Shown piece by piece: positions 3,205 through 48,927 of a stretch of 64,000 nucleotides of DNA. The notes below the pieces were generated by a model. It was not told where the DNA came from, did no database searches, and saw only the letters and a program-made list of their open reading frames with translations. The translations under genes and the position numbers were made by a program. The stretch is taken from positions 789,349-853,348 of the forward strand of contig CAJINV010000009.1 of NCBI GenBank assembly GCA_905178155.1, in the 5' to 3' direction. Source of the stretch: Amoebophrya sp. A120. Taxonomy: Eukaryota; Protista; Dinoflagellata. Position 1 is the first letter of the stretch; the number at the start of each line of letters is the position of its first letter.

Positions 3205-6200
3205 ATGCCGGCATTGGTGGAAAGGGGCCGAAACATGCACGCGTCGCACCGCGGCGGCTCCGATCATCCCGATCTTGATCTAGTGGACTACAACATGACG
3301 GTGACGAATTACCATTCAGATCACCAACATCCAGAGGAAAATGCCGAACGGCGTCACCAGGATTTGGATCATGTTGACGGTCAACATGAAGAGCTGATGG
3401 CCACCTTTGACGCCACCGAGGACAGGACACAGTTCAGGCGCAACAAGAAGAATTCGAGACGGGCAACGAGATCACCCTCTGGACCCAAGAAGAGGAATAC
3501 AATTTTGAAGATTTCTGACTGCAATATCTTCGAGGGCGACTTCATTGCGTTTTGCCACGTGTTTGCCGCAGGGGTTACGCTTGTCATGGCCCGCGTTACC
3601 CCCGGAGCTTGTTTGCTGGAGGAACTCGGCTTCACGCTGGCGGAGCTGGCCCATTGCGATGCTCTGTTTTGGTCCGGCTTTGTCATTATCAAATGTAAAA
3701 ATGTCTGGGTCTGGAAGAATGCAAGATTTGTGATGCAGGTTTTCCATGACCCATGAGGTCTGGAATGCGAGACCCAGCATGACAGATTTTTTGAGGTCTC
3801 TATCAATATCATGCCTTTCCTGCATGAGAAACTCCCTCTCAACTTGGTCAAAAGCGGACAGCTTTTGGTACTCACGCAACACAGATTTTTGTATTTTTGT
3901 ATCCTTCGGATTTAGCATGACAAGTTCCAATCTTCCAGACCCAGACATTTTTACATTTGATAGTCATCACGCAGATCGTCCTCTTCGCGCCCTTCTTGGA
4001 CCTATTTCGCCCGAACAGCGACGAGAATGACCGAGATGAGGAGGAATTCTTCAGCATAAAGCGAGATTTTGGCAGCGGCTCTTCCGAGAGGACAAAAAAT
4101 GGTTCGCAGCAGGAAGTGAATAGCCACGGGTATCACGATGTTGAAGACGAAGAAGAAGCACAGGAAGAAGATGAAAAGCAAATTTTTACTCGCCCTCCGT
4201 ACAAATACAACGACCACTTCGCTGCAGCTGGAACTTCTGTTTCCCAGCATCATCAAGGAGGCTCAGGCTTCGTCGACGACGCTGATCGAATGCAGCTTCT
4301 CGACCGAGACTGCTATAATGCCTCTGCACTCGTTCGAGGACCCGCGCGTTCGGAAAAACTTTCTTCCGAGAGCAGCAGAGGACGAGGCGAGAAAAGTGCA
4401 AGGGCAAGCGAAGTCGACAGGTTGATCCCTGTTGCGACCGCCGCGTATTCACCGTGTGGTCTGACTAAGACCCACATGACCCTTTCCGCGAGGAACTCGA
4501 AATTGGTGACGTCCAAGACGGCAATAACGCCAGGCGGCCTGCCGGACGGTCATCCCGAGAAAGGCGGCCCGGAAGTTGTGCGACTTCAGGGTCATCAGAG
4601 GCAGCGAAGCGCCGCTCCTCGCTCGACGGCGCAGCACATCGGGAAGGCCATTTTTCGCAGATTTGTGCCGACCAGCTTCCGCAACTGGCTACAGCTGCCG
4701 ACAGCCATGCCAACAAGTTTGCAGGTGGTCTACAAGAACGAGAAGAAAAAGAAAAATCAGAGTACCACGAGGACCAGTCAAGTGGGCGAAAGTGATTCTC
4801 CTGGTGGAACAAGTCATGATCTGCAATTATTCGGCGGGATTCGGAAAAAGCAAATCGACGTTTTTCAAAAACCTAAGCAAGCGCTCCTGGCCGCGCTGCT
4901 GCTCTGCGCGATCGTGCAGTTCTCGTTTCCCTCCTTGGCCACCTCGAAGGCCCTGATGCTCCTGCAAACAATCCACGGGGTGGCGCAGGGCCTCGCCTGT
5001 GCTGCTTGTGCGCAGACCTTCCGCAAAGTGGTGTACTCACCTAACCAATCCACGCTGCTTCTCTGGGTCGCCTGGGGCACGACCAGCTTGGGACTCGGAA
5101 AATTTTGCGGACCGCTGGTCACGGAGTGCAGTCTGGCGCTCGCGGCGCGGGCCCCGCCGGTTTCCACGATCATGCTGGAACTACAAAAAGTCAACCGCTT
5201 CGCCGGCATGAGCACGAGTGGCAGCACGCCTTCTTCCGGTTTGGAGCATGCTGCGGGAACTGCAGCGCCAAGGTGGAGCAGTGCTAGTGGAACAAGATCT
5301 TTGTCGCGAACTGTTTCCTATTTGCAACTCTTCGGTGATGACGACGACGCTACTGTCAAAGAGAAGGAAGCGAGCCGATTTTTTTTCGGCCTCAGCCCGT
5401 CACTTCCTGCCATCCACGACGACGGAAGTTCGTATATTCCCTTGTGGCCGCTGGTGCAGCCGCCGTCCACAAGAACAAAGTCCCAGCAGGGCAAGGGAAT
5501 GGAGGCAGAGGATAAAAAACAGCAAATCACCAAAAAGAAAAACCAGAAGACCAATGATCGCGAGGAAGCAGAGCTGGAAAAAACGTCTGCCAATAAACTT
5601 TCATTTCTGCAAGACGATGAAAAAGCTGCTGCGCCTCCTCCTGGTGAAAGTGAAGAATCTACAACATCGCGAGGAGCTGAAAGACCAAAAAAACAGGTGA
5701 AGCAAGGAGCAGGAAGCAGACAGAGGACTTCGAGTTTTAGTTCCGAAGCCCAACACAGAAAGAAAATGAAAAGAACGGCACATCGTCATGAAGATGTTGA
5801 TGAGATCAATAGGTCCGCACTATTCAGTGTTTCATCGAAAGATCATCTTCTGACAGCAGCGTCTACCGACGGTCCACAGGCACAGCCCGAGTCCGAGACG
5901 GCGGTCATCCTCGGCGAACTCGGAAAGCGAAAGAATGAAAGAACACAGAAAATAGACGGAAAGGAGGAGAAGGAAGAAAAAGAATCGGAGGAACAAGGGG
6001 CTGCTGCTCGTCCAGAACCAGAGAACAAAAAGAAGAAAATCGATTTCTTTGATAGTCGAATTTGGGCCGACTGGGACTGGTCCCGGGTGCTGTTTCACGA
6101 TCCACACGTCAAAATGGACGATGAGGAGCCACACACGGCGTCGTCCGGCGGAGATGCAGCGGATCGCGACAGCAACAAAGCACCGAAAGACCCACGGCAG

Positions 6201-9200
6201 TTGGTGTCGCAATCGTGGCGGAGGTGGAAGCGAATGAATGGCAGGGAGATGAAAAGGCACGAGAGCGAACGGGAACTGGTCGAAAAGCAACAAATAAGTG
6301 AGCTAGAAGCGATCACGACAGCATCAGCAAGTGAGGCGTCAAAAGCAAAAGTAGAACAGGAAAAAGATGCAAAGTCTGATTTGGACGGTGCGGGCACCGA
6401 TACAGCAGATGCAGAAGGAACACAGGACGACGAAAATAAATCTACGGAGGATTTGATTCGATCCCTCCTGCGGTCCCACTCGACGCAGATTGAGGAGGCG
6501 CACGAGAAACTTGAAGAAGAGGAAGAGGAGGAGGCAATTCTGGACGACATCCGGAATTTGCTCCGCGAGCGACGACGGGAAAAGGAAAAAATGCGCTACG
6601 CGGAGGATGGCGCGACTTCGGTTTCTTCGGAAACATCCTCAGCGCCCGCTGTTGAAAAAGCTGGTAAAAGGAGGCTATCCACTCAGTTCCAGGAAGAGGA
6701 ACGGGAGCTCATCGAGGCGCTGTCCAAACGAATCGCGAAAAGCTCCTCCGAAGGCGCAGCTACACACACGGAAGAGCAAGAAGCTGGAGAAGTGGAAGCT
6801 GCTGGACGAGGTGAGCGAGAAGATGGCGGACACAAGCCCTCGGCATCACCGACACCAGGAAAAGGACACTACACTGGACGGAGCAAGACAAAGAGTGCAA
6901 CTGAGCGTGAATCTGAAAAGCATTCTGGCGGAATCTCCTGGGATCCGAAGTACAACAAAAGGGAGCACCAGCATCAACATGACGGCCACAAAAAATCTCA
7001 CTCGCACAATCTCGGCAGCGGCAGCAGCAGCAGCTCTATCGGCATCTACAAGCATCGAAGTACTAGCACATCGACCACAAAAGCCTTAGGCGACGACGAG
7101 GGCGCAACCAGTAAAAGCACAAGCTCGGACCTCCATACAATTACAAATGACGCAAAGGGAAAAGATGACAAGAACGCGGAAGGACAAAGAGCTACTTCTT
7201 CAAATCCGGACGACGCGGCCGCAGAGGAGAAAAGTGAAAGGGACCCGGAGTACGAGGACAAATTCGCTTTTGGTGCGGCTTCGCCAGCGGACATGTTCCA
7301 GTTCCACGCACCGTTTGTGTCGCACGGCATCATCTTCCTGATTCAGGCCTTCCTTGTTTTTTGCACCTTATCTGTGCCGCAGAAGTCAAAGCTAGAAAGA
7401 GCCCAGGATGAAATTCTGGCGCAGAAGGAGCGGAAAGCAAGGATTCAAAATGGTATGTTCTCCTCTCATCGCCATCGCCGGCGTCCGGACGTCGAGGGTG
7501 CGTCCAGAACTACAAGCAGGCTTAGAAATGGAAACGTTTCCAGAAACACAGGGTCCTGTCGTGGAAGTGGTGTACGTGGAGGGTCTTCATCCACTTCCTC
7601 ATCTTCCAGTTGTGCGAATCCGTCCTCATCTTCGTCGGCCGAAAGTGAAGCCCAGGATCAGGCCCATCTCCAGCATCAGGAAGAGGAACTGGTTAGTTTT
7701 TATTCCGATCGCGAGTTCGAGAGCGTTGAGGACCTCGAGGACGAAGATATCTCGCCGATCATGTTCGTGCAGGACCACGATTTAGACCATTGTATCCACG
7801 GCTCCTCCAAAAATGCGGCTTTAGAAGAACCAACGCAGCAAGCGGGAAGAGCAGGCGTGCAGCCAGGGTATTATCCGGGAAGTGTGGACCGGTTGCAGCA
7901 GGGCAGCAGCTTTTTCCAAACTTACACGCGACCCGACGAAGGCGGGCCTCAAAGCAGGGGGCATGGGGCCGCTGTAGCGGCAAGCGTTCGCATTCTCGCG
8001 CGAGGTAAAGGCACCACCAGCCGGCGTCCTGCACAAGAACGTCCGGCGCAGCCTGATCCTGCTGCGGCGCAACACTGGGGCACGTATTACGAGAATGAGG
8101 ATCAAGAAACCAGCATGTCCGCGGTTTCAGTGTCAGACGTGGAGTATGAGGATCGGCGCGGTGGGGTCGAGCACCTTGATGTTTCAAATCACGGACCAGT
8201 GCTGCGACGAGATAACGACAACGACAGCACTCAACCTCGAGAAGAAAGCCCCATTGTCGTGAAGGTACTTTACAGCACTCTTACTCATTTATTGCGCGCT
8301 GGTGCGGCATGACTTTAATGTATTCAGTTTCGTCATCAATTTTAGTAGTTAGACCTTAAAAAAATTTTGGAAAATCACGGTCTCATTATCAACATCGATC
8401 TTCCAACGCGTCAAAATAAACAAATTGCAGGTTGTTGGTGGCGTTATCCGCGTCACTTCCAACGCCGATCCGGAAGAGCCGCGCTCTCGTCTCATGGAGG
8501 ACCACTCGCAAATAAGCAACTTTGAGAACAAATCCTCCAACCTGGACGGACGACCCGGCTCGTCCGGCAATTCGGCCACCAGCATACACTTACCGGATAA
8601 CGATCCAGCGGAAGTAGAGGAGATACAGTACGAAGGAACCAAAGAACCACGACGGGCGGTGGGGGAGCAGCTAGTAGAAGAAGGGGTGTCCTCTTCTCAG
8701 CGACGAGAGGACCACGACAGCAACATGATGATCTCTTCCAGTCTTCAAGCGCTGCAAACGGCGCTCCAGCAAGACCGGTCGCACAGAAAAGAGCGCCTGG
8801 CGTCGCTGACGTCGAACAGCGATCACGATGCCGGTCGTCAAAGTAGCAGAAGAGGCCGGCGTCAACATGATGGTTCTGCTGGTCACCGCGGACGAGGAGG
8901 TGTGCTGTCGCATGGTCCAAGCGCCGACAACTCGTCGAAAAATTCAGAGGAGATGAATTCGACGGGCGGCACAAGCAGTCTCGAGCCGTCTAGTATCGTC
9001 AACACCGCGAGGGATCATAATTTCTACAGCGCGTATGAAAGACAAGAGATTAGTACGACGACCTCGATGCGATCGTCTAAGGAAGTAAACCTGAATCCCT
9101 ACAAGAATAGCAGCAGCAGTTCCACTCTGTACGTGGGCAACAATGACAAAACCACTCGTGCAGCAGTACAAGCAGCCGGAAACCCCGGGGGCGTGGTCAC

Positions 9201-10676
9201 GAACATTCTGAACTCTAGTCATACGGCTTGCCTGTCTGCTCCGCACTACGCAATCGACACGCCGGGAGTCGCCAGTCGGGATGTCAGAGACCAAGCCGAG
9301 GATCTTCTGACCAGGAGCGGTGCCACGGCCTGGTATTTGACGCAGAGTGGTAGTATTTTCTGAAAATTTTTCAACCATCCCCATCGAATTGGAATTTGTC
9401 AGGCAAAAGATGGAGTAAAGTTGGCTTTGTTTTGTCATGCAATGCTGGTTCCGCATCCTCGCCCACCCGACCCCCTGGGGAGAAGAGCCATTGCCTGTTG
9501 CGCTGGGTGCGAGTGCGGAGGGAGGTGTCCACTACATCATGATGACGGTGATGCAAAAAGTGGATGTGGATGGTTAAAAATTTTCAGAGCATAAATAGCG
9601 GCAGCAGTTCAGCAGCGTCAACCGCTCGCGGAGGTAGTCATCTGTTGCAGCTGACGACAGGCGCATCACTTTACCACCCGCAGAGGGAAGTTGCAGGAAG
9701 ACGCGGGAGTGGCTTGCTCGAGCACGAGCAGCGGCTGCGGCAGGATGATCTCCTACATCAAGCTGATGAAGTCGTAGATATGGAGGACATGCAACTTGTC
9801 CAAGTTGCTCGACATAACTTTCTCGGCGAAGGACAGGAAATGTTGGCCAGTAGCACGAATGCGCCTACCGCGGCGTCGCAAGAGACAACCTCGACGTCCA
9901 CCTCCCGCAACATCCTCTCCGCCACTGGAATCAACCTCCTCGGACCGTTTTTCAGCTCGGTTTGCATTTTATGCGTCGCTATGTTGGAGGCGGCCTACGT
10001 GCTGTGGCTCACGTTTAGCTTTCCACGCGGCGTCGGAACCATGTTTCTCGCATTGCACGGGCTTGGCGACGCCTCGAGCGGTCCCCTGATCGCACTGCTC
10101 ATCGTCTCCAGTACGACGGCAGACGCAGAGACAAGGAGAGTAAGAACTTCATCCGGTGAAAGAACAACGACAACGAGGACCTCCTCTCATGCAGGAGCCC
10201 TTCTATCCAACGGAATGATTGACAACCGTGCCACGACAGCCGCCAACAGCTTCAACTCCCGAACAGTCAGTCGCGTTGTGACGACCCGATTCGACCTGCG
10301 CTTGGCCGTGTGGGTGTTGTGCTTCGGATTAGCTTGCATCTTCGTGTTCCTCCTCCGCATAGAACAGAACCCAATTGACACGTATTGTCAGCTGCTCACC
10401 GCAGTTTCGGTCTATTTCCTCGGCGTTCTGATGGCGAGCATTCGGGCGCTGTTCGGCGGCTTTATCCTGCTCACCTGCAACGTGGAAACCGCAAGACTGC
10501 AAATCCCGTTTTTTTGGTGCAGCGGCCACTTTCTGTGCAACTTCATCACCCCCGTTATTGGGGTCGGTTTGCCGTTGAGCCAATTTTTAGCCTACTTCGC
10601 GATTGTGTTGTCTTGCGTCGTCACCCTCGTACTCAGCGGCGAAAAGACCGTTCGAGGATTCGTCAGGTCACCGTGA
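3205..10676 (+). CDS. Very large multi-pass membrane protein, probably MFS-like transporter with giant hydrophilic insertions; exons 3205-3686, 3968-8264, 8431-9353, 9599-10676
   Basis: Four ORFs join in frame via element 3687-3962, a GT-AG intron 8265-8430 and element 9354-9593. Hydrophobic helices with MFS-like character (LFWSGFV|ITQIVLFAPFLD; LLQTIHGVAQGLACAAC; SLGLGKFCGPLV; FHAPFVSHGIIFLIQAFLVF; several C-terminal helices). Confidence 0.6.
3687..3962. mobile_element. Introner-like non-canonical intron, family C (276 bp)
   Basis: Perfect 32-bp TIR TATCAAATGTAAAAATGTCTGGGTCTGGAAGA; direct repeat GTCAT at 3682-3686 and 3963-3967; removing 281 nt fuses ORF 3205 to ORF 3957 in frame. Confidence 0.93.
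8265..8430 (+). other. Canonical GT-AG intron (166 nt)
   Basis: AAG|GTACTT ... TTGCAG|GTT; AT-rich; its length restores the frame between ORFs 3957 and 8425. Confidence 0.75.
9354..9593. mobile_element. Introner-like non-canonical intron, family B-related (240 bp)
   Basis: Imperfect TIR TATTTTCTGAAAATTTTTCAACCATCC ... GGATGGTTAAAAATTTTCAGAGCATA; degenerate repeat GGTAG/AATAG; contains TTTGTCATGCA; removing 245 nt joins ORF 8425 to ORF 9564 (QSG|SGSSSA). Confidence 0.78.
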
Positions 10677-11651: not shown

Positions 11652-14600
11652 ATGTCCGGTCGTCCCCCGTTTTCATTGGCGGGAGACAACGGCTCGCCCA
11701 GTGAGCTTTACGGTGGCGGAAAGAAACACTGGCTCCGCCGCCTCCGACTGGACTACCGGCCTTGTGCAGCCCCGTCTTTTGCTGCAGCCGTGGATGATCG
11801 ATATCGAGATGACGAACAAAGCGACAGCCCACTCGGCCCGGAGTTCTGCCTGCGGGATCGGACCGCGCCCGGCTGCAAGCAGGAGGAGGGGCTCCGGTCC
11901 ATTTGGGCCAGCGCGGATCGCAAGGCACGTGAGTGCTTGAATGCTTTGTATCTGGTGAACATGAAGACTACCAGTGGAGGCACTACTAAAATTGGAAGTA
12001 GTAGTAACAAGCATACCTTGGGCGCCGACCAACCGCCACCGTACCCGGCCCGGCTGGCGATACGAGTGTACCCCGAGTTCTTTTTCACCGTGAAAAGCTA
12101 CCAAGCTGTGCTGACCGAACGCGAACGCCAGGAGAATGCGTTTGTGTTCGGCGATGGTGTGCACGGGCAGGGGTACTACCTGATCCGTGAACGAGAGGAA
12201 GAGGCAGCGAGTTCTGAATTTGGGATAAGTGGAAGTGCAATTACCGGCACCACGGTTGCATCCTCAAGCTCGTCCCATCCTCATCCTTTTGCAAAAGTCT
12301 TGAAGTCGTCCGCCTCCGCGGGATCATCTTCATCTTCGAGGGGCGCCGCTGCAGCAAGACGCGCGTCCATGATTTTGCGTCCCGCGTTCCGCGGAGGCTT
12401 CATCGGTCCGCGCGAGGGGTTTTTCTTCGGTAGGACCACCCCAGAACAGGGAAGGATACTGGGGTACTACCCGCAGCGGCTGCCAGAGGAAGAGATCGAC
12501 TTCGAGCTCGCCCCGAAGTTTACTGGTCCGCGACCCGGCTTTTTCTTCGGAACGCGCCCGATCCGCGACGGCGGCCGAGAGCATGCAGCTACAGTGCTCT
12601 ATTTGGGTTACCACCGGGACAAAGCGAAGGCCTTCGCGGCGTCCTCCAGTGAGGCTCTTCATCTTTCCGTTGCGCAGCAGCAGCTCGAGCAGCAGCAGCC
12701 ATCGGCGGCCGCACTGTCGTCGAAAATATTGAGGACGCTCGCGGCCCAAAACAAATCAAAGTCACTGCAAGCGAAGGAATTGTCGTCGAATGGTGCAACA
12801 GCGTCCCGAGCGCATGCTGCAGCTGGAACGCCGGGGGCAAATGCGAATACGGATATTTTTGCCGATTCGACGAGGACCCCGAGAGACGACAGGGGCGACG
12901 CGAGTGCAAGTGCGCAATACAGTGGCGACCAAACCCAAGCTCCTTCCGGTCGGGTAGGGACGAATTTTTCAATCACTTTTTCGTCCACTTCCGCGGGGGC
13001 CGTGATGCGACCCTTTGACCCTGGCGCGGTCACCGGGGCCCGAATTTTGGACATCGTGCTGGAACTTGCAAAGTATGACGCATCTGCCCGTGAATTCCTC
13101 AAATTGCTCCTGCACCGTCCTTCCACAATCGATGCCTGGAAGTCATGCACGGGTCTGTCCTACAGCGTTCCGAGTCTTACTGATTGTTCAAAAGACGACG
13201 CCGGAAAGCAAAAATTGATGCTGAACAAGGAGCACGGCGCCAGCAGCGGCTCCAGCACCGGTGCCGCGGCCGCAAGCAAAGACAAAGAGCCACTCGTGGG
13301 CCGAGCGTTGAGCTCGGTGCTGAAACGTCCCCGGTTTGATGCTGCGTGGTTGCAGGGTGGGCACAAGAGTTATTCGTTGCGTCAATTTGTGTTTGACCGT
13401 GCCCTACTGGCCTTCATGTACCAAATATCCAGCATGGCGTGGCGACCGTTCTTCAACGAGCATCGTGTGCTTGCCGCGATGCCGAATGCGCGGCTGTTGA
13501 ACAACGCTTTCCGGTTGAAAGGAGAGGGGAAGACCATCGAGAAGCAGATTCAGGTTCTGCAGTCCGTCTCCAAACCAGCCTGGGCGCAGCGCCGTGTCGG
13601 GTCGCCGCCTGGGCGCGCCTCGTCAGCCTGGATGGGCGGCCACGCAGCTTACCAAGCGGAAGGCGATGTGTATCACTGGGCGCGCACTAGCAACAACTTC
13701 ATGCAGAAGAGCCTGCTTTACAAGGTAGTCCTTCGGAAAGATACACACTACACCTGTTGCAGTTTCATAATTCTAGCACGCTGGATTTGATTGACATGGC
13801 TCTTGTTCAGTTGTATGTGACATCAACAAACATGGAAACAATTGCAAACACGAAGACAAAACGCTGAGTGTTTTAGTTTTCCAGTTCGGTGGTCGGGTTC
13901 CAATGACTAAGAATAAAAAGCAGGAAGGTGCAGTTGTGGTTGATCAGCTTTTCTTCTCATTGAAAAACGTACTAACACAGGCGACCAACAAATCCCTGGC
14001 AGATGACGACCTCGGCATCAACAGCCACTCTGTGTTGGCCTTCGGGAGCGTACAACCGAACGTGAACCAGTATGAAGGTGGGCGCTACAACAATGCCCAC
14101 ACAACGACGTATGGTCCAAACGCAAACGCCAGCGGTGCACCACTGTCCGCACGCTGGGGCACGCACAGTGGCATGTTTACGCCCAGGGAAGCATCTTTGC
14201 AGATGACCCCGCGATCTGCGCGCTTGCAATTCGATGGTGGTAGCAGTGGGACGCCTTTTTGCGTTGAAAACGATGCCCTCGGTGGCAATGACACCATCCT
14301 CACCGCTCCTGGAGCTTCTGCTGACACGTGTTCGCTGGAATTGGATCTTTCCTCTTGCTTTCGCGCGATGCATGATCGCCTGATGTGGCAACCTGTAGCG
14401 GTGAGCTCCCAGTATCGGTTTGTGCCGCAGAACCGGAAATCCATCCTGAAACACGAACAACAAATGAACGCGGACACGGTGCTGGCGTCGTGGGTGAACA
14501 GAGGAAACAATCCGCGGGACAAAGGCAAACTTTGGGCCGCGAGAGAGTTTGATCCGAGCTATTCAAGTCGTACCGCCGGCGGGGGCAAGACCAAGAGCGA

Positions 14601-17600
14601 GAACCACATTGTGGACATGAAGACAATGCCCGCCGACTGGAGCAAGAAGTTTCCCTTACGTCATGACCAGATGGCGGCCGTGACCTGGATGCGCGAGCGC
14701 GAGTTGCGAGCGAAGCCTTTCCGGGTTGAGTACGAGCGGATGCTGGAGGGCAATTTCTTCCTGCAGGATTTGGCCAACTGGGATTTGGAGCTCCGAATGC
14801 AGGCGGACTACTCTGCCCGGGGCGGCGTTTTGGCAAACCCGGTGGGTGCCGGAAAGACCGCGACCGTGCTGGGTTTGATTGCGCTGGACAAAGAAGCTCC
14901 GTTACCGTGTGACGAGCCCGGGGCAATGCCGCAGAAGCCACCGACCCGATTCCCAAAAGGGTTCGAGCACGACCGCAAACCAAAGCAGCCGGTCGCAACG
15001 GCGGCGGACAGCGACGAAGAGGAAACCTCGTCTTCCCCCGCAGCAGCTGCGCCCCTTTTGGAAGCAGGCTCGTCTACTAAGAATAAGAAACTGAACAAAC
15101 GAAGCCGCGGACGAGGAGCGAAATCAACGTCTGAAGACGCACATCAAACTCGAGCAGCGAAATTTTCTCGCCAGACACCTTCTCGCAAGACACCTTCACC
15201 TTCCAAAAAATTGCCGTCTGCCGTTGTCGCGAAGGCAAAAGCCTGCGGCAGCGTCAAGAAGAGTAACAGCAAAGTGAAACCAACGGCGAAGGGAAAAGCC
15301 ACTGTCGCGAAGAGCAAGGCAGCTGGAAATAAGGCGAAAGCGTCGCCTCCGCCGTCAGGAGGTCGAGCAGCGCTTCAACATATTAACGACGTCGTGCCTC
15401 CTTCTACTCAAACCGCCGCGGCGAGCGCATCATCGTCTTCTGGTCCGCCCAACGCGAGAGATGGAGGCAAAAGCAAGAAGAAAAAAGTCGGGTCCTCTTC
15501 GGACGCAACTTCGAAATCCGTTGCCGACCAGGTGCGAAAAGTCTTCAGCGACCAGGAGGCACAGGTTTTGGACCACGACTGCTTTTTTCCGAGCAAGGCG
15601 ACTCTTGTTTTTGTCCCCGGCCACCTGGTGGACCAGTGGGAGCGGGAAATTGCTAAGTTCATGCCCGATCACAAGCTCAATATCCTCGCGCTGCGCAACG
15701 TCAACCCCCTCAAGCTGCTCACCGTCGGCGACATCCAGCGGGCAGACATCGTGATTTGCAGCTACCGCATCCTCTTCTCAGAGAACTACCAGCGCCTGCG
15801 GTTGAAAGAGCTGCTGTTTGGCTTCGGTGCGCATTTTTTGAAAAAACCAGGCAACGCAGCTGCAACAACTTCTGCCACGACGAAAACAGAAAGTGAAAAA
15901 GAACCGAAGAAAGTTGGCAGTGAAGAGGACGAGGTGCTGGAGGCTGCGTCACAACGGGAAGGTTTCCGTTCTCCAGCTGCAGCGATGACCTCGGCCGCAA
16001 CGCTGCCGACCGAAGCGAACAAGGAAACAAATATTGACGGGGGTGACACAAACACCATGTTATCTGCGTCTGGGCCGACACAGACTCAGACGCTGAATCT
16101 GAACTATAGACCGACGAGCAGAAGTGGTGCACGACCTCAGGCGATAACGATTCTGAAGACAGAAAACCAGCAGCAGCAGGGAGGCAAGAGCAGTAGTTCC
16201 TCGGCAGCAGGAGGAGAAAATCAACAACCCAGCTCGTTCGCAATGGCGCACAGGCCTGATCTTTCCCTCTGGATTCAGGATCGCAAGTACGGGATTCGCA
16301 CCAAGAAACGCAAGGTTGACTCTATCCTCTCCGTAATGGACCACGGAGCGCGTGCGGTAGTGGATGCCACGGGCGTGGTTCCGAATGAGAAGAACAAGTA
16401 CAACAAGAAAAGATTTGTCGAGGAGGAGCAAAATAAACCGCTGTCCACCGTGTTGCAGGGACCCGCAAAGGAGCGCTTCAAATCCTGGCACTTCTCAGAC
16501 CGCGAGCGAACGATGCTCCATTCGCTGCTGAAGGAGCAGGTGCGAGAGTTTCGCAAGAACCCGACGCATTTCCAGCACTGGCACGACAGTCAACGCGATG
16601 GTGTCAAGTACTTTCGATCGATCCACCGGCAAGCCTTGCTTGTCGCCGCGGCGGTTGAGACGGCGTCCCGCGCAAACAAAAGTTTAAGCGAGAGGGCCGA
16701 GCAGCGGCGCGCCGCATTGTTGGAGAAGCTAGCGCAAGAATTGTCGGACGATGGCGACGAAAGACCACCGCAAGCAGAGAGCGACGGCAGCGAGCCAGAT
16801 TCACCTCTTGCACAAGAGATACAAAACGCGCAAGGAAAAGCGAAAAAGAAAAAGCCGCGGCCACGAGGGCGACCGCGGCTGAAGCCGAAGCCCATCGAGG
16901 CTGCTCCGAAAGCGAAAGTACTAGCTCAGAAACCCAAAGTTCTCGTTGCCTCAGTCCTACTGAAGAAGCCGAAGCGGAAAGAAACCCGGCTTGTTCCGCC
17001 TGGCGGTGGCAAAAACAAAAAGCTGCTGACCAAAAAGAAGGAGAACAAAGCAAGTCCGGGTAAAAGCAAACAAAAACGCCACACACCGGGTAGGAAGAGG
17101 CCTGGGAAAGAGATGTCAGAGCTGCTCGCGAGTCCTGACAAGGTCGCCGAGCCGCGCGAAGACTCGCTCCAAGACACGGAGTACTTCACGAATTGCGTGC
17201 GCGAGTTTCGGAGAGCCCGGCTGCTTGGCACGGAAGAGGAGTGCGCCACCGCGCTCGAGATCCACGAAGCCCAGGACCTTCGCTTCCCGCTACTGGAGAT
17301 GTTTCTCTGGCGTCGTGTGGTGTTTGACGAGATGCACGAGCTGGAATCGTTCAATCCGAAAGAAGTGGACATTCTGCTGCGGTTCCGCGCCCTGTTCAAG
17401 TGGGGACTGACCGGCTCCCCCGCGGCCTTCTCGGTTCGATCCGTCAACGCCATGGCCTCGCTCTTGTCCATCGATCTGCTCGGCGTGTCAAAGGAGGAAT
17501 CCGGTCTGTTGGACCAGGTCCACCAGTACGCCGAGGCGTGCGCTGTGACGCAGGGCGGGGACCGGGGCGGGGCCTTGAGCGAGCACCTAGCCACCTATCT

Positions 17601-20600
17601 CGCTCAGGACGAATACAACTTCGACGCGGTGACGCAGCGGCTCAAAGCCTGCGTGGACTGGTTCTGTAATTGCTGCGGTGCAAAGCTGCTTGTGTCCCAC
17701 AAGATGCCGCAGGTCTTTCGCGGTACAGTCCGCTGTGGCGAGTGCGGCGCCGCGAACCACGCAGAGGTCCAGTTCCGCCGGCGCACGAGGCTCGACGAGG
17801 ACGCAGACTCGCCCTCCAACATCAATAGCTCCCCGCAGCCACTGCCCGAGGTTGGCAGTCGGGTCTACGACCCCTCGCTACGCTGGTCGGCGTCTAACTT
17901 GATGACCACGAATTTGGTGGAGGCCGCCAGCAGCCGCAATTCGCGCACGCGCATGTACGTGGAGGATCGGCCGCTGAGCAGCGACTTGGCCTACGTGGTC
18001 CAAAACGACGACGTGGACAGAAGGCGTCTCCACGCCTTGCAGTATCGAAACGTGAATTGCGGGGTGCGGTGGACGGTCCCTTTGGACGTTGCTGATGCTG
18101 GAGGGAAAGGCGATCGACTGAGCCGTAGCAATCCAAATCCTAGGCAGGATATCTTTCAGCTGAAGAACAAGACACAGCATCACGACGTTCTTGACGAGGA
18201 TGTTGAGGCTCGCCGGCTGCACGACCATGATGTAGCTCCTGAGAACGCGCTTGTTCCCGTGACAAGATCGGCCGATCATAACGCAAACGCAATAGCCGAG
18301 AGCAGACAGAAGATCGTGACGAGGAGCGCCAGTGCTATCGCTGTCAAATCGTCTATTGCGATCCCTTCCTTTTCGCTGAGACGGGAAGACATGCTCTACT
18401 CAGATTTTCAACGGCAACTGGTGAAGCTCGAGGGCCGGCTGGACAATGCGGACTATCCAAAGAAAAAAACCCATCCACATCCAATTTGTCATGCAAAACA
18501 CGTATAAAATCATGTGTTTGTCATGCAAAAAATGGATGTCGATGAGTTTTTTTCTGTGGAAACGGACGGTCGCGACAGTAGTAGCAGCTCGTCGTCGGCG
18601 GACGAAGGTGCTGGGCAGGAGTACGACGACGTTAATGCTTTGCGAGAAGCGGAGCGAGAAGAGGCTGTCCTTGGCATGAGCAGCATTCGAAATAAAACAT
18701 CGAACAGCGGGGGATTCGAGCTTGCTGGCCTGAAGAGTTTCGCAACCGTTACCGCACAAATGCGAACAGAGACCTTGCTCTCGCCAGGCAGCGAAGATCA
18801 TGGCTCTTCCTTCGTGGACGTTGCAGACAAAGTCGCGCAGCGGAGCAATCCTCCTGGGCTGACGCCAGCACAGCAGGCAGGGGTGCAGTCCATCCCAGGG
18901 CTAGAAGATGATGGCATCGTGGAGCCCGTTGCTGGTTTGCTGTCTGCGGCTTCACGCCAACTGGTCGTCGCAGCGGAAGTGAAGCATTCGTCCCCAACCG
19001 CTGTAAACCCTTTCAACGCAGCCGAGGACCGGCATTTTCGGATCGCCGAGGAGAGACGGATGATGCGCGAACTCGACCGCTTCCGCAAAACCGCGCAGCC
19101 GCGACTCGTCGCCGTTCCCTCGGCGTTTGCGCTGCAGCGCTGGAGCACGCTGGCCCGGCACCCCTTCGAGCGGTCCGCCACATACCAGCAGAACGCCGCG
19201 CGGTTCCTTCGCGAATTTGCGTGGCGGCGGTCCTACCCGTTGCGCGTCCGCGTGGTCCAACACGTCGTTTATGTCACACAGATGCCACAGGAGCGAGCCT
19301 TGTACTTGAACCGCGTCCAGTCGCTGCCGACCTGTCGGGAAGTCTACGAGTTGCCCGCCGCCGATGGCGTGGTCACGAGCACAACCCGCGGGGGAACCCA
19401 GCGCGACGCGGGGCAGCAGTTTGCCACTGGGAAGCACATACCGATCTCTAATGTGGAAATCGAGCGCCGTCGCGAATTGCTGGAGCTATGCTCGCACTTC
19501 GCAAAAGGTAGGAAGTACGAGAGATGCTGCGCTTTTTTTAGAGACCACCACCCGAGAGAAACTTCATTTTGATGATGAGCTGCTGCGTCTGATGGCTTTA
19601 GTACTATCTTCAGACGAGCAGGTCATGAGTCGGTGTGGGCTAAAGAACAAGAAGTAGATGTAGGTCTGCTTATAAAGGACACGCATGATCTCTCTTTGTC
19701 GCGTACGCGTTCGATTTCCACGCCACAAGAAAACGCCCAACCAAAAAATCAGGCACGCACGGTTCTGTCACCGGCGAGGTTCTTCGCGTGCTTGCTAAAC
19801 GGCGCGCTGATGTCGAGTCCGATCTTGCCCAGGTCGCCTATTTCTTGAAGCAGCTGGAGTGTTGTTTGCGCGTGCGCGTATTGGGGGCAGAGTCTCGAAG
19901 CAGCTCAGGATCGTCGTCGTCGGCCGCCGAGGGCGAGAACGAGGAGGAAGAGCCGGGTCTCTTTTCGTCTTTTTTCCCGACCACCATGGGCAAAAACGTC
20001 CGCAAGCAGCGGGACAAATATTACAGTGGCAGTGTTCTTGGGAGGAGCAACGTGCGGGTGATGAAACGCAAAGACTACAAGGAGACGGAAAACTCCGGAC
20101 CGTGGGCATCACAATCGGTTGCAAACTTGATGAGGGCTAATGATGCTAGCATGGTACACGAGAAGGGTCTTCCCAAACACTTGTCGGAGAAAATTCGAGC
20201 TGTGATGTTTCATCCAACGTCAAGTGCGGACACAGCCAGCGGCTCGGGTGGAGCCGCCTCGTCTTCGTCGTCCTCGGCACCAAGGAGCGGAGGTCCCTTG
20301 TTGGTGACAAAGACAGGCGCGGTGGTATCATCGACAACACTTGCAATCATCGCTGCGTCTGGTGCCGATACCATCAAGAACAGCGACCCTGTGTCGAACA
20401 AGGACAGACGTAGTGCCAGAGACGGGCTCGGTCCGGGGGAGCGCGCTACGCTGCTGGGCGGTGGTGGGGCGTCATCGTCTTCCTCGACCCTGTTGCCCCC
20501 ATTGTCTTCCTCTTCTAGTAGTAGCGCCGCCGGTGTGCAGCAAAATTTGGTTTCGGGCTCGACCAACTATGACCCGTTTGACTTGGATATGATAGTGGAT

Positions 20601-23600
20601 GCGGACGACGTCGAGTTCCCCCTCGCTGCGGGTAACTACAAGACATCGAACGAAGACCGCACACAGCTGCTACCGGACCCGGTATTGAGAAAGTTGCGTG
20701 ACCTGGAGAAACGCGCAGACGAAAATGCGGCAGCTTCCGGGTCGTCCGCAGAGGAGCAAGAAAGCGGCCAAGAACCTTTGGACTTACCGGGCATCGTAAC
20801 CAGGCTGCTGCGCCTGTGGAACGAAGAAGTTCCCGTGCTCGCATCCCGGTCCATATTCCACGATGCTTTCAAAGAGAACCGACCTGGGGACGGGGATCGG
20901 CTGGACGCGCTGGAAAACCTGGGAACCCTCTCCCGCCGGAAAAAGGAGGAGCAGTTGCAGATGCACGAGCGCGACCTGTCGCAGCTCATTTGTGCACAAC
21001 TGGACCGGTTGCTGACCGCCTATCAGCACTACAACTTCTTCCGCAAGACGCTGGACGTGTACGCCGACTCCACCGCCAGCTCCGCAGCCTCGTCGGTCGG
21101 CGGAGATGTTGGGGACCACCTGAGTGGTGTTGGCAGTGCGAAGAAGAACCTCGAGGCTTTTCTTTCTGATGGCAACACCTCTGCGCGAAGCTCCTCTTCA
21201 GGATCGTCAGGGTCCGCCGGAAACAACATCTCCAGTGATCAGAAAGTACTAGCACTAGACCAGCAGAGCATGAACAACAAACTCGCTGAGGATGCAATAG
21301 AAGAGGTGGTCTCGTCCGCTAAAAACGAGAAGCTGCAGCTCTCGTCGACCACCTTTCCGCAGGCCGATGCGGCTGCCAGTTTCACAACGAGAGTTGATGC
21401 GGCCGCAACAGGCGAAAATAATGCGGTCGTCGCCACAGCTAATGCCGCGATTGCAGTGCCAGCGCAGCTCCAGCCGAGTGGTAATATCACAACTTCGCAT
21501 GGCATCAAGAACCCGTCCAGGGCGGACCAGCGCTACTGCGCAATTTGCACGGAATACCACGACGTGTCCGAGCTGGGAATCACTCCGTGCGCGCACGTTT
21601 TCTGCGTAGTTTGTCTGAACGCGATGGTGGAGAACCAGTATGCATTGCAAAAGTATGGTACTAGTATAAATTGCATTACAAATTTTGGCAAGAAGAGAAG
21701 TCAAATTTGTAATGCTGTTTTACCTTAGGAAGAAGATTTGTCATGCATATTTGCAATTAGTACGAGTGCGATACTTTTGCACAGGATAACCAGCGGAAGT
21801 GCGCGATTTGCCGGCAGCCCTTGCACGAGAAGGACATTTTGTCGCTCTCTTCGGAGCTGCATGCCTGGAAGACGGAGGTGGTGCAGCAAGAAGAGCAGGC
21901 TACCATGGCGACGCTGGGCCAAGTAGGCAAGCGATTCCGCTACCAGAAACTCACGCGCGGCAGTCTGCTTTCGCCCGCCGTGAATGAAGGAGGTGCTGTG
22001 TTCGATCAGCCGGAAGCTCTTCTAGAGCCTCCGCGAAAGATATCAAAAAAGATGACCATGAAAGATATCAAGAAGAGCGTGGAGCAACAAGACCACTCGC
22101 CCACCCACGGCCGCTTTTACCCAGCCAAAAGACAGAAGCAGAGTCCTGACGGAAAAAAGAGTCAGAAAAATTTTGCTGGAGGAGCGCAGAACAGGAAAAA
22201 TGCAACCACCACTACGTCCGATGAGGAGCTTGACCCGCAATGCTCCGCGGTGACAATATTGGAGGACGTCGCAGGGCCGATCGACTTCGTCCGGACGTTG
22301 ATCCCCAAAGGACAAATCGCTTTTCCAGTAGCAGCGAATGTTGGCAGCACGACCGCCAACGACTCATCTACTTCGTCCGCGTCGTCTTCGTCCTCCTCGG
22401 CAGGAGCTGGCAATGGAAAAAATGAAGCCGCCGTGAGCAGCACAACTTCAACTGTATGGAAGAGTCAGAATCGAAATCAACAAAATCGAAATAATTTGTG
22501 ATGCATAAAATCGATACCAGTTGGAGCCTCAGTTTCCAAGTAGTGCATGACAAATTTCGGGAGAACCAAAATCCAGTCCGTCATGCTGCTTGGGAAACGG
22601 AGACTGCTCCTGTCATGCTACCCGGGAAGCACATCGCCTTCCCCTAAACAGGCTTGCAAGCGGTTTCACTTGCCTGCTCCCCAACACAGGCTGCGCGTGC
22701 CCTACATTTTATGCATGACAAACTATTTCGATTTTGTCCATTTCGATCCTGACGCATCCATAAACTGAGAAAGAGTTGTATCCCCTCGTAGACATAGCGG
22801 CGACGTACGGGTCGAAGATGCAGAAGCTAGCGGAGCTACTGACGAAAATCAAGGGCGACGACAAAAACGCAAAGATCCTGGTCTACTCCCAGTGGGACAA
22901 GGGAAACAAGTTGGCCTTCGAAGCCCTGCAGAACCTCCAACACTTGAGCTGCCACCTGTTCAACGGCGGCGTTGCCGCGAAAGCACGCCTCCTTCGCCGG
23001 TTCGCGGACGCCGAGCCGGGAAAGGCATCATTAGACGTGCTGTTGATTATGGGACTCTCAAATGTTACATTCTCAACTGTTACACGATTTGTCATGCAAA
23101 ATTTCCGTCAATAGCTACATGATCAAGCTGCTTCGCATGACAAATTCCCGAAGAGCTGCCAGGCTGAAAATCTACTGTGCCAAATCTGTCATGCAAGATG
23201 CGCTAGGTCTCCCGTCCCCTTTCACGTTTGCCATTCCTGCATCACAAATTCATGCAACAGGAGTTGAGAATGTAACGTTTGAGAACACCATATTGATCCC
23301 CCTGGACTTCGGGGCCAGCGGTTTGAACATGGTGCTCGCACAGCACATCGTCTTCGTGCACCCCTTATCAACTGCAAAAATGTCTGGGTCTGGAAAGTTG
23401 GAACTTGTGATGCAAATTTTGGAATCTAGAAAACTCTGTATTGCATGACCAGCAAGAGGAGTCCAGTTTCTGCTATGCGGGGAGGCCATTTGTCATGCGG
23501 AATAGGCATCAAGAAGCACTCAGAAAATCTGTGATGCCAGGGAATACATCACAGACGTCACGGGCCATGTGAAATCTGCATGACAAGTTCGCATCCTTCC

Positions 23601-23840
23601 AGACCCAGACACTTTTGCATTTGATACCCCTTCAGTTTTCCCTCCGTCGCCCAGACGCGGGCCGCGGAGGCGCAGGCCATCGGCCGGGTGTGCCGGCCGG
23701 GGCAGGCACGCGGAGACATCCACGTGTGGCGACTCTGCACTTTGAACACTGTGGAGGAGGAACTTATCAACGAACGGTGCGGAAATGGCTCCTCGACGGG
23801 TGGGAATGTTTTTCATGAGGAGCAGGCTGCTCCTGCGTGA
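11652..23840 (+). CDS. SNF2-family helicase/ATPase with C3HC4 RING finger (RAD5/RAD16/SHPRH/DNMT5-type architecture); 8 exons: 11652-13724, 13885-18453, 18568-19507, 19753-21638, 21794-22454, 22768-23047, 23298-23365, 23632-23840
   Basis: Motif I RGGVLANPVGAGKT, Ia ATLVFVPGHLVDQW, II RRVVFDEMHE, III KWGLTGSP, RING CAIC..PCAHVFCVVC..NQ|RKCAICRQPL, YGSKMQKL, IV KILVYSQW, V VLL|IPLDFGASGLNM..AQHIVFVHP, VI EAQAIGRVCRPGQ. The model uses two GT-AG introns (13725-13884, 19508-19752) and five hairpin introns; every junction is frame-consistent. Confidence 0.88.
13725..13884 (+). other. Canonical GT-AG intron (160 nt)
   Basis: AAG|GTAGTC ... TTTTCCAG|TTC; joins ORF 11613 to ORF 13903 in frame. Confidence 0.72.
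18454..18562. mobile_element. Introner-like non-canonical intron, family B (109 bp)
   Basis: Imperfect ~30-bp TIR TATCCAAAGAAAAAAACCCATCCACATCCA ... TGGATGTCGATGAGTTTTTTTCTGTGGAAA; direct repeat CGGAC 18449-18453/18563-18567; removing 114 nt gives DNAD|GRDSS and removes an in-frame stop. Confidence 0.88.
19508..19752 (+). other. Canonical GT-AG intron (245 nt)
   Basis: AAAG|GTAGGA ... AATCAG|GCACG; frame-consistent between ORFs 18514 and 19788. Confidence 0.72.
21639..21788. mobile_element. Introner-like non-canonical intron, family A (150 bp), inside the RING finger
   Basis: TIR TATGCATTGCAAAAGTAT ... ATACTTTTGCACAGGATA; direct repeat ACCAG 21634-21638/21789-21793; removing 155 nt supplies the final CxxC of the RING; interior homologous to 944-1103. 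Confidence 0.93.
22455..22762. mobile_element. Introner-like non-canonical intron, family D (308 bp)
   Basis: ~57-bp imperfect TIR starting TATGGAAGAGTCAGAATCGAAATC and ending ...TTTCGATCCTGACGCATCCATA; direct repeat AACTG 22450-22454/22763-22767; removing 313 nt gives TTST|EKELYPLVD in frame. Confidence 0.9.
23048..23292. mobile_element. Introner-like non-canonical intron, family E (245 bp)
   Basis: 31-bp TIR TATGGGACTCTCAAATGTTACATTCTCAACT ... AGTTGAGAATGTAACGTTTGAGAACACCATA (4 mismatches); direct repeat TTGAT 23043-23047/23293-23297; removal restores helicase motif V. Confidence 0.92.
23366..23626. mobile_element. Introner-like non-canonical intron, family C (261 bp), inverted relative to the other two family C copies
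   Basis: TIR TATCAACTGCAAAAATGTCTGGGTCTGGAA ... TTCCAGACCCAGACACTTTTGCATTTGATA; direct repeat CCCCT 23361-23365/23627-23631; removal joins VFVHP to FSFPS..QAIGRVCRPGQ. Confidence 0.93.
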
Positions 23841-24424
23841 AAGGTGGTTCCTAGTGCGACGTGAAAGCGTTCTCAGTCAGGAAGCAAGTTTGATCATCCA
23901 GTATCTCTAACTCTATCTCCAAGAGTGTATCAGTCTACCTTCGGCAACTACAAGAAGAACAAGCGCGCCAGTGCAGTACTAGCAACAGTGATGTAAACGA
24001 CGCGGCGGGTTCTCGCAGGGCGCAGCGGCCCATCGACATTCAAATTCCGAATTTTTGAAAACAACAAGAGGCGAAAAAAGAGCCCCCGAGAAGACACACA
24101 AGAACCTACAAAGAGTAGGTTTCTTTCGTCTGAGAGTGCTGGCCGAAGGCGAAGATATTTGTTCGCGGATGTGGTTTTTTTTTGGGCATAGGAGGTCTCC
24201 TTTGTTCGCTTCGGTTCTTGTGCTTCTTGGTCACTTTATTTGCACCTCGAGTCCTCTGATCCACTACTCGAGGATTCTTGGTGATCGTGCTGTTGTTCGA
24301 CCCGCCTCAAAAATCTTTCTGCATACACAACTAACTTCCATCAGAGCAGCATGTGGTCATTGCTTGGGCTAGTGCTTGTGCTCAGACGTGTCCCTGTCTG
24401 AAAAAGCAAAAGGACACCGTAAAA

Positions 24425-26779
24425 ATGCAGTCCCTCGAGGTTTATCAACTGTAAAAATGTCTGGGTCTGGAAGATTCTGACACTTGTCATGCACGTTTTG
24501 CATGAGCCACCATGTCTGTGATGCATACCCTAGCGATACAGATTTTTTGAGGGCTTCTTGATGCCTATTCCGCATGGGAAATGCCTTCTCAGCGTAGCAA
24601 AAATTGCATTCCCTTTGCTACTCACGCAATACAGATTTTTTTGGAGTCCAAATGCAGCATCACAAGTTGCATTCTTCCAGACCCAGACATTTTTGCATTT
24701 GATGAGGTTGAGGTCGAGCTCGACGAGTTGGATCTACCGCGGCATGGGGATGAACGGTACGGGGTGGATGACGGTGCTCTATTTCGGCACGAATCGTCCG
24801 AGAGAGTTGTAGTCCCCTCACCGCTTGCCAACCACGGCGCCTCGTCCTCCTGCAGCTCTCGCTACAGCACGATCGAGCTCTTGTGCCAGAACGCCGGTTT
24901 TGACAGCTACTACGCCTTCTTCCGGCGGTTGTTTCTGCATTCTGTGCTCTTTTTCGCAATCGCCATCATCGCCATTCCCTTTCTGGTGATGGACCACCAC
25001 TCGTGCGCAACAACGGGCTACCTGGGGGTCATCAGCCACCTGTTTTTCCTGTTGCTGCTCTACGGATCGATTCTGGAGGAGCTGCGTTGCGCGTGCAGGT
25101 TCTTCGACCCAACGGAAGATGGTGGCAGCAGATCAAGCAGTCCGAGCGGCGGTTCGTTTTCCGGATTTTTCTCCATTTTGTCTACAGCAGTAAGCCCGGG
25201 CGGCGGTGGTTCGGCTTACGATTACTTGGAACAGTTAAAGGAATACACGAAGGACTACGATGAACAGGTTGAAGAAGCCACTGTCAGGAATTTCGGAACT
25301 ACATCTTCAACCACGTTTGTTCGCGGTGGGCCGGCAGCACCTACGTCATCAGCACAAATGCTGGAACAAACCTCGTCTGCGTTTTCGTTTGCAACGTCAA
25401 GCACTAGCCGCTTCGAAAACAAAAGCAAGACATCAAACTCTTCAACTGCCGAACTGGAGATCGACACTAGCACCGGCGCGAACAAAAGCAGCACTGCCTC
25501 CGCTGCAACCAGTTTAGCCACGATGATTGGCAGCGCCACCCGGTGGAAAGAATCACCAAAAGCGGCAGATGTGTTGGAGCACGAACTAAGTGGAGGAGCG
25601 GCAGACGCTAGGAACGCGGCGCCACAAGGAAGCGGAAAAATGACCAAATCTTCAGCTGCGTCCTCAAGAGGCGACGTTGTCGTGGTCGAGTTGCGACCAG
25701 ACCAAGAAAGCGGAGCAGCTGTATCAACTTTTGTTCCTTCGCAGTCGTCGCCCCCACCGAAGAGAACAACGAGCGGCAATCTGTGGACGAGCTTTTCGAA
25801 TGCGGTTTTGCAGCCAATCACCAACACCCTGACCATCACGTTCATTCGGTGTCACTACATCACCCAGTTCTGCAGGACTTGCTGCGATTACTTTTTTTTC
25901 GAGGAGCTGTTGCACTTCTTCAAGAAGAACGAGAACGCGATCCTGGTTTTGAAGCAAATGACGTGGCGATTGGACATGTATTGCGACATTTTGTTCGTGC
26001 TCATCGCCAGAAATTGCGGCTCTTACCTCTGGTGGGCGAGTTTGGCGATTTTCGTCTTCGTGAACTTCTTGCTGCAATTCGTCCTGCAGATTTTGTTCTT
26101 CGCCTGCACCGACTGCGACCAGCAACTGCCAAAGTCGACCGGCTTTTTCTGGCTTGACTTCGTCGTCGTCAATAAGGCGGTCCTGGTGCAGTTGCGCAAG
26201 ACGGAGATCATGGTCGCTCGGCAGGAGAATTTGGGGAGCGATAGCCAACCACAAACGATGCAAATAATCGCTGCGGGAAGTTCAGGTGGAAACGAAATAG
26301 TAGCTCCATTAGGACTTGTGCAATCGTCATCTTCGTCTCCGAGCAGCCTCAGCTTCGTCGATAGTTCCAAGAGCACGAATCTGCTCAGTTGGGTCCAGTA
26401 CGCCATCATGATAGAAAAGTGTTTTCTGTCAGATCTGATTCAGATTTTGATTCAAACAAATTTCCTGCTTGACCTCTCTACCCCAAACAATAGCCTTGTG
26501 TACTGCAGTGTGCTGTTTAGCTTTGTGAACTTTTTGCTGAACTTTTGTCAAATAGTAACGGGGGTGATATGGTTTTACCGGAGGCAAAGAATAGCCGAAG
26601 AACGTATGAAGTCACACCTTGAGGCAATAAAACATGATGAAGAAGCGATAATATCGAGTAGCCTAGGTGGAGCTTCAGCTACAGGAGGGGGATCCAGCAC
26701 TGGTGGCACGCTTACAGCAACCGGGTCCACTTCCGCTTCAACTACTCAAAATGAATTGATACCGACAGGGAGAGTTTGA
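24425..26779 (+). CDS. Multi-pass membrane protein of unknown function; exons 24425-24442, 24710-26779
   Basis: ATG CAG TCC CTC GAG GTT joins ORF 24581 after removal of element 24443-24704 (MQSLEV|EVELDELDLP); several hydrophobic helices; RLDMYCDILF and SDLIQILIQ loosely recall XK-like membrane proteins (weak). Confidence 0.7.
24443..24704. mobile_element. Introner-like intron, family C (262 bp)
   Basis: TIR TATCAACTGTAAAAATGTCTGGGTCTGGAAGA ... TCTTCCAGACCCAGACATTTTTGCATTTGATG; direct repeat AGGTT 24438-24442/24705-24709; the 267-nt removal is in frame and can also be read as GT(24440)-AG(24706). Confidence 0.9.
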
Positions 26780-48438: not shown

Positions 48439-48927
48439 AATAAGTATAAGGCTGTTGCAGCTGCGTCGCCGGTTCGCAATAGTCTTTGCGTTTTTCGATT
48501 ATACTCCTACCTCTTTCTCTTTGCATGCGGACGGTGGCTCTGAAGCCTGTTCCCTGGGAGTAGACCAAGACCGCATCGTCCATCAAGAATTAGCATAACA
48601 AATTGACGAGGAGGTTATAATCAAAGCCAAAAAAAAGGCATGCAGCACATGCAGGAGGGCGGGTCCACAACGACAAGACGTAGAAAATAAACGAAAACTG
48701 AAAAATCAAAACGGCGATCGTGTTGAGCATGAAATATGGCCTTCAATTTTTCTTCCATATTTCTGAATTCCAGGAAAAAGACTACGGAAGAGCCTGTGGC
48801 TGAGGGCGACGAGGACTGATAGCCACTTTCGAGATAAACGAAGAAGACAAATTGCAGGGTGATGATAGAAGCAGAAGATTTTATAATCAATACGAGTCGT
48901 ATTAGACCAACATCAAACTCGTAACGA

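Follow-up and report, generated by a model that had tools for sequence, protein, structure and literature searches.

The stretch analyzed here, a window of 64,000 nt, comes from the dinoflagellate Amoebophrya sp. A120 (GenBank assembly GCA_905178155.1, contig CAJINV010000009.1, positions 789,349 to 853,348, forward strand). Every long open reading frame (ORF) of the window lies on the plus strand, and genes of the window are interrupted by intron-like elements with terminal inverted repeats (TIRs). Three of these elements, designated by their first base as 3687, 23366 and 24443, belong to one family, called here family C. The copy at 23366 separates motifs V and VI in the gene for a RING finger-containing helicase of the SNF2 type, and the copy at 24443 is located near the start of a 689-codon ORF. 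A sequence-only reading of this DNA had stated that all three host genes are on the plus strand, in agreement with both the long ORFs and our codon model; it had also claimed that the family C elements occur in both orientations, that they are removed independently of orientation, and that recognition is symmetric, as in an endonuclease-ligase or transposase-like reaction. We found that orientation-blind removal is real and general, and it was not found in print for Amoebophrya; the elements themselves are already described. Either-orientation introners are already known from other organisms. Huff et al. (2016), as cited in the preprint of Roy et al., reportedly dealt with such introners as well.

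The relative orientation of the three copies was determined in interior-only alignments, with 55 nt trimmed from each end. Between the interior of 23366 and that of 24443 in reverse complement, 115/152 positions were identical (score 157), while the forward comparison scored -25 and the maximum over 40 shuffles was -26. The copy at 3687 aligned with 24443 in the same sense (113/167 identical, score 109; reversed, -30) and with the reverse complement of 23366 (102/166 identical, score 76; forward, -50), so that the inversion stands as had been described. Each of the three elements is bordered by a perfect 5-bp direct repeat, i.e., the target duplication, and the ends form a terminal stem-loop (fold z -5.65 for 23366 and -9.14 for 3687); an Rfam search of the window produced no match. 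The AGGTT repeat of 24443 permits an ordinary GT...AG cut, a point overlooked in the sequence-only reading. Because neither 3687 nor 23366 permits such a cut, whereas 24443 does, 3687 and 23366 make up the informative pair. The elements carry stop codons in all frames, and removal of 23366 together with one repeat yields a gap-free alignment across the junction of motifs V and VI to an independent homologue, P0001, which carries PF00271; the inverted copy thus does split the helicase, as claimed.

Removal was followed in transcript-type contigs from a single study, in which X3 and X5 represent one sample and X6 another. The copy at 3687 is removed by a direct joint, 3681>3963, which skips exactly 281 nt in X3, X5 and X6. 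The same contigs also lack a canonical GT-AG intron and therefore behave as spliced RNA, their kind being only guessed. For the inverted copy at 23366, the evidence comes from exact length accounting and not from a displayed joint. In X6 (record 15), 67 record letters lie between 23042 and 23626, which is the exact length of the exon 23293-23359, and in X3 (record 9) 347 letters are left, i.e., 280 + 67; therefore, 266 nt were removed at 23366. Orientation-independent removal is thus borne out by a direct joint for one member of the informative pair and by length accounting for the other. For 24443, there are breakpoints only: the alignment of X3 record 9 ends at 24436 with 114 nt left, that of X6 record 16 begins at 24704 with 76 nt before it, and both fit the removal of 267 nt. 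In-frame GT/GC-AG introns near 23366 and 3687 were tried and rejected, with exon lengths off by at least 6 nt and with the contigs in disagreement. Separately, in X3 and in X5 one contig runs from inside the right repeat (3945) back to the left end (3687) with 27 letters in between; these contigs probably belong to another locus, and a circle-like product is possible. Run X9 (raw RNA, 11 reads) leaves the genes uncovered and carries no information on strand or efficiency; a few of its reads combine a family C end (24443-24476) with foreign flanks; a related strain may share family C.

A scan for the family C end motif located at least 149 loci in one public assembly (JACKZZ01 contigs), which is a sample and not a genome-wide count; none of the loci overlaps the unique sequence of the window, so that the assembly may represent another strain. 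These loci contain 150 distinct family C copies, 125 of which have a perfect 5-bp repeat. Fifteen copies were excluded because their repeats matched at fewer than 4 of the 5 positions, because a flank was truncated or because they measured 400 nt or more; of the 135 kept, 69 had no confident host strand and 66 were callable. Host strands were assigned by the codon model, which, when tested leaving out the window ORFs, was right in 181, wrong in 6 and left uncalled 113 of 300 cases (150-nt flanks); a longest-ORF shortcut, which was rejected, gave the wrong strand at locus L025. The interiors can be oriented relative to each other without conflict (5466 of 5466 pairwise edges are consistent), and the element is, therefore, truly polar. 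With the strict call, 32 of the 66 copies were oriented like 24443 and 34 like 23366, so that a sense and antisense count of the kind proposed in the sequence-only reading, made on this sample, reveals no bias. The other cuts gave, in the same order, 45:48 of 93 (looser), 11:13 of 24 (stricter) and 13:16 of 29 (closest relatives). Of 44 loci, 7 had matches to Pfam, which without exception fell on the called strand; three of these 7 loci have inverted copies, one of which lies in the gene for the largest subunit of RNA polymerase (L069).

Neighboring copies, for which no strand call is needed, had the same orientation in 9 and the opposite orientation in 9 of 18 cases (4 and 2, respectively, among the clearest 6). 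For example, at locus L004 a frame of 890 amino acids appears once three copies are removed, two of which lie one way and the third the opposite way, and at both L004 and L010 the two orientations are found within one restored frame. Removal of the element plus 5 nt restored coding on both sides in 59/135 copies, versus 10/135 for +4 or +6. It should be noted that we infer the splicing of the copies at the 149 loci from such frames, not from RNA. Four other families split by orientation as 3:4, 4:3, 5:1 and 2:2. A scan of viral contigs for the family pattern gave no match.

Because flipping a strictly polar interior changes nothing, the signals must lie in the terminal repeats. Consistently, longer copies with foreign interiors retain these repeats. 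CTRAY is present in 9/35 and 5/39 copies by orientation and is thus no shared interior branch motif. The repeats begin with TAT-N7-AAA: in elements outside family C, T1 and A2 are each found in 66/66, T3 in 65/66 and A13 in 64/66, and family C is alike. In RNA, the ends are, therefore, identical in both orientations, UAU-N7-AAA at the 5' end and UUU-N7-AUA at the 3' end. The target duplication is near random, with no usable sequence preference, and a GT/GC-AG cut is possible in 17/122 copies on either strand; among sense-oriented copies, 6/65 permit such a cut, or 9/65 if GA is counted. As a class, the elements thus lack the combination of a canonical GT, GC or GA 5' site with an AG 3' site. 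The transcript of the element at 1778 retains the left duplication copy through base 3, which places the cut after base 3, 4 or 5, and the transcript of 9354, in three runs, keeps it through base 2, which places the cut after base 2 or later. If the cut is fixed, it would be located 0-2 nt ahead of UAU on the 5' side and 3-5 nt past AUA on the 3' side.

When the elements are read along the transcribed strand, their two initial bases (5' UA) are altered in 0/140 copies and their two final bases (3' UA) in 8/140 (p 0.008). Without the window's own elements, the counts were 0 versus 6 of 130, and a second detector, applied to an overlapping set, gave 0 versus 7 of 125. The number of altered 3' UA is about that predicted for neutral drift from repeat mismatches (4-8). 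All 140 of 140 elements keep the A that lies three bases from their 3' end. We take this end polarity as no more than a lead. A test of mismatch positions in the duplication (12 at positions 1-2 versus 5 at positions 4-5, p 0.14) was not used. The proposal that recognition proceeds via the terminal repeats thus stood, given that the polar interior is irrelevant, and the splicing machinery likely reads only the mirror-image ends of the elements; symmetric recognition, in contrast, was not supported, as the alteration of 5' UA in none and of 3' UA in 8 of the 140 copies and the off-center cut argue against it. Furthermore, the step from orientation independence to a non-spliceosomal, endonuclease-ligase or transposase-like reaction does not follow, because a terminal inverted repeat gives the RNA the same 5' and 3' sequence either way, so that a polar machine would be orientation-blind, too.

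At least eight further elements of the same build, belonging to other families, are present in the window (Table 1). The interior of 48269 matched that of 18454 in reverse (30/39, score 42 versus 2 forward). The elements have the traits of miniature inverted-repeat transposable elements (MITEs), namely TIRs, a target duplication of fixed length, no coding capacity, and many copies in both directions; in six longer spans (481-1031 nt) bounded by family C ends, no stop-free stretch exceeded 151 codons. The long copy in L070 adjoins the matches to the largest subunit of RNA polymerase of L069. The ~320-nt family, whose hosts occur on both contig strands, may be under a polar constraint. Two candidates, at 31328 and 61498, scored within the shuffle range (0-4 matches per shuffle) and were dropped. 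Inside the helicase gene, the frame changes at 19573-19688, where no TAT...ATA element was detected and a putative intron would lie. One X3 contig is unbroken over 23626-24436, from the last exon of the helicase gene to the start of the next gene; overlapping untranslated regions, read-through or assembly merging would explain it. At 52023-52588, tandem ~37-nt units make up an inverted structure of 566 nt, the arms of which (216 nt) are 91% complementary; it is without TAT/ATA ends and is possibly a foldback-type element. A further candidate element, at 48872-49556, differs in its ends, is flanked by a repeat of 6 bp and contains a direct repeat of 45 nt (48918-48962, 49490-49534).

Table 1. 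Elements and related features of the window, and copies at loci of the public assembly (locus label before the colon)
Feature	Location	Strand	Description
Family C element	3687..3962	+	276 nt; same sense as 24443; duplication GTCAT; no GT-AG cut
Family C element	23366..23626	-	261 nt; opposite in sense to 24443 and 3687; terminal inverted repeats of ~35 nt (TAT...ATA)
Duplication of 23366	23361-23365 and 23627-23631		CCCCT, 5 bp, perfect; GT/GC-AG cut impossible within repeat
Family C element	24443..24704	+	262 nt; duplication AGGTT; ends ATG, not ATA
SNF2-type helicase + RING finger gene, host of the inverted copy	13795..23841	+	PF00176 E 1.3e-16; RING matches; elements 18454, 21639, 22455, 23048, 23366; RNA comparison of junctions from 21200 onward
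Family A element	944..1103	.	~150 nt; duplication CGCCA; 165 nt skipped in X6
Degenerate TAT...ATA element	1778..1989	.	Imperfect duplication CCAGT/CCTGT; joint 1775>1993 in one X6 contig
Canonical GT-AG intron	8265..8430	+	166-nt joint in X3, X5, X6; spliced-RNA control
Degenerate TAT...ATA element	9354..9593	.	Imperfect duplication GGTAG/AATAG; joint 9350>9596 in X3, X5, X6
Family B element	18454..18562	+	109 nt; duplication CGGAC; ends AAA; removal predicted to restore helicase frame
Family A element within RING finger	21639..21788	.	Splits the RING finger; duplication ACCAG; 155 nt skipped
308-nt element	22455..22762	.	Duplication AACTG; 313 nt skipped (X6 record 15)
245-nt element	23048..23292	.	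Duplication TTGAT; 250 nt skipped (length accounting)
Family B element	48269..48377	-	Inverted relative to 18454; duplication CTGGG; host strand weakly called + (score 8.5)
Long family C copies	L070:1501-2472, L042:571-1051, L043:1815-2445, L065:426-929, L072:1501-1996		481-972 nt; perfect 5-bp repeats; unrelated inserts; no transposase-length ORF
~320-nt family, close members	L002:307-658, L003:89-409, L039:729-1052, L041:1677-1997, L056:1083-1404, L058:493-813, L058:875-1192, L076:1811-2132

The elements are almost certainly the published non-canonical introners of Amoebophrya A25/A120 (PMC7789003). In the text of that paper (Farhat et al. 2021), the inverted repeats of A120 are given as TAT, seven variable bases and a run of A, and the introners share with our elements the TAT-N7-AAA repeats, direct repeats of 3-5 nt, a hairpin, a length of ~240 nt, location in co-oriented gene blocks and the lack of an internal transposase; no transposase was found in A120. 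The same text, in which "strand" and "lariat" do not occur and "orientation" is used for genes only, does not give introner orientation, cut position within the repeat or end polarity, and its figures and tables may bear on orientation. A literature search, which did not cover subscription papers, found no report on the orientation or chemistry of Amoebophrya introns. The pipeline described in PMC12130899 demanded same-orientation matches. Comparable in orientation behavior are the introners of Polarella glacialis and Aureococcus, which are also derived from TIR transposons with target duplications and make introns either way (10.1101/2020.10.14.339549). According to the same preprint, however, these have GT/GC/GA 5' sites, with a splice site drawn from a constrained duplication (GH.., AGGH), and their classes 6, 8 and 10 are biased to one orientation, whereas family C is unbiased, its duplication is near random and GT/GC-AG is possible in only the 6 of 65 copies noted above. 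The introns of Fritillaria borealis share the TIR, target duplication, non-GT/AG ends and a retained U2 spliceosome (PMC11282704; PMC13326754), and TIR-derived non-canonical introns of Fritillaria are reported to be spliceosomal (PMC11282704). They differ in their restricted ends (mostly AG-AC and AG-AT) and conserved U1, whereas the ends in Amoebophrya are unrestricted. Nonconventional introns of euglenids, an unrelated lineage, are MITE-like as well, with paired ends, no GT-AG and direct repeats at the junctions (PMC12501133; PMC11282704), and their 5' stem spacer is shorter than the 3' spacer (PMC12501133). Their motif is CAG/CTG, in contrast to TAT...ATA with AAA/TTT at 11-13 here, and the euglenid purine requirement at the exon start is not evident in our elements.

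The elements are inserted into exons both ways at about 1:1 with an unselective duplication, they are removed exactly as element plus 5 nt, and their interior is irrelevant. To account for this, we give roughly even credence to a model in which MITE-like elements are removed in either orientation by a hairpin-guided ruler reaction of an adapted, U1-less spliceosome. Insertion would be due to a TIR transposase acting in trans. The paired ends would fold the pre-mRNA into a stem that draws both cut sites close to each other and so substitutes for U1 and for AG recognition; the machine would be polar, reading the 5' UA and measuring from the stem, with cuts presumably 0-2 nt ahead of the invariant UA(U) on the 5' side and 3-5 nt past the stem on the 3' side. 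Family-wide, a single nucleotide is a candidate for the branch, namely the A three bases from the 3' end, and this assignment is speculative. In some protists, and in group II introns, branch adenosines can lie at a distance of 7-8 nt from the 3' site. The spliceosome is preferred as the catalyst because it is present and must already work without detected U1: in Amoebophrya A25/A120, nearly all spliceosome subunits are reported present and U1 was not found (PMC7789003). The occurrence of canonical introns in the same genes as the elements also counts for it, as does the reported spliceosomal nature of the Fritillaria introns.

Somewhat less probable, but a serious contender, is a second mRNA splicing system, in which a spliceosome-independent protein endonuclease would read the 5' UA and the terminal stem and cut at fixed, measured distances, and an RNA ligase would join the exons; the element would leave as a linear hairpin or as a circle of full length. 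This is the model of the sequence-only reading made polar instead of symmetric, and a mechanism of this kind is suspected for the nonconventional introns of euglenids. The lack of a terminal dinucleotide, the near-random duplication and the failure to find U1 in Amoebophrya all fit it. The overhang of the stem, short on the 5' side and longer on the 3' side, is reminiscent of the code N3CDG/CH'GN5-6|R of Euglena (PMC12501133), although our elements do not follow this code and only the offset geometry is alike; euglenid introns are, moreover, reported to leave as circles without lariats (PMC11282704). Conversely, no enzyme candidate was found, none having been sought, no end-to-start circle joint occurs among the RNA joints listed, where contigs lose rare forms, and orientation independence itself gives this system no advantage. 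We rate the U1-less spliceosome slightly likelier. There are two further explanations. Skipping of the template over the hairpin at the 5-bp repeats, either by the reverse transcriptase used for the library (an artefact) or by a cellular RNA polymerase, would be orientation-blind; each element has a strong hairpin and a direct repeat, and all RNA evidence is based on complementary DNA (cDNA) from one study. It is nonetheless improbable, given that even junctions at which no more than 2-3 bases match are joined at whole-transcript depth, that the cell must remove elements with stops in all frames that split conserved motifs, and that the invariant 5' UA would be left unexplained. Even less credible is a scenario in which a transposase-like enzyme cuts the elements out of the DNA of the expressing life stage, as for the internal eliminated sequences of ciliates. 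The TA-containing inverted ends and orientation-blindness fit this idea, but contigs of run X1 span the element-exon borders at a depth of 43-48, equal to that of the unique flanks, the contigs without elements also lack a GT-AG intron, and the end polarity tracks the direction of transcription.

A number of points weigh against the spliceosomal ruler model and the data behind it. The RNA evidence comes from runs of one study, the kind of these runs is a guess, and the contigs give neither strand nor efficiency. The cut window assumes a fixed cut and rests on two junctions, the tighter of them on one contig. The end polarity is post hoc and small: positions 1-3 give 2 versus 8 (p 0.11), and all 32 repeat positions give 194 versus 229 (p 0.098), with no clear asymmetry. 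A test for selection on RNA pairing was null (sense strand G.U 81 versus A.C 87). An earlier, weaker order-4 strand model, which left most segments uncalled and was replaced by the codon model, gave 30:23 of 53, with 15:6 of 21 in one stratum (p 0.078). In the ~320-nt family, all 8 of 8 close members have one orientation relative to the called host strand, unlike the other families (of the more distant relatives, one lies the same way and two opposite), so that families need not all be unbiased. The model would leave the last 3-5 nt of the intron arbitrary, which docking of the 3' site in the spliceosome is not known to allow, and wholly arbitrary 3' ends favor the endonuclease-ligase system. 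The chemistry of the reaction is inference only.

In Amoebophrya A25/A120, over 60% of the introns are removed without GT-AG, and both PMC7789003 and a review of 2024 describe the way in which this happens as an open question. The orientation pairs indicate that a stretch of ~30 nt at either end holds all the information needed, and that none is contributed by the interior, the target site or the terminal dinucleotides. The question of splicing is thereby narrowed to fixed predictions: a cut window, an invariant 5' UA and one candidate branch A. If the second splicing system proves true, insertions anywhere in exons, in either orientation, would be erased from the message genome-wide, essential genes included, in convergence with euglenids. 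More generally, the findings, if true, would imply either a spliceosome that dispenses with splice-site dinucleotides or a non-spliceosomal enzyme for mRNA splicing, and either outcome would give a scarless, sequence-independent intron.

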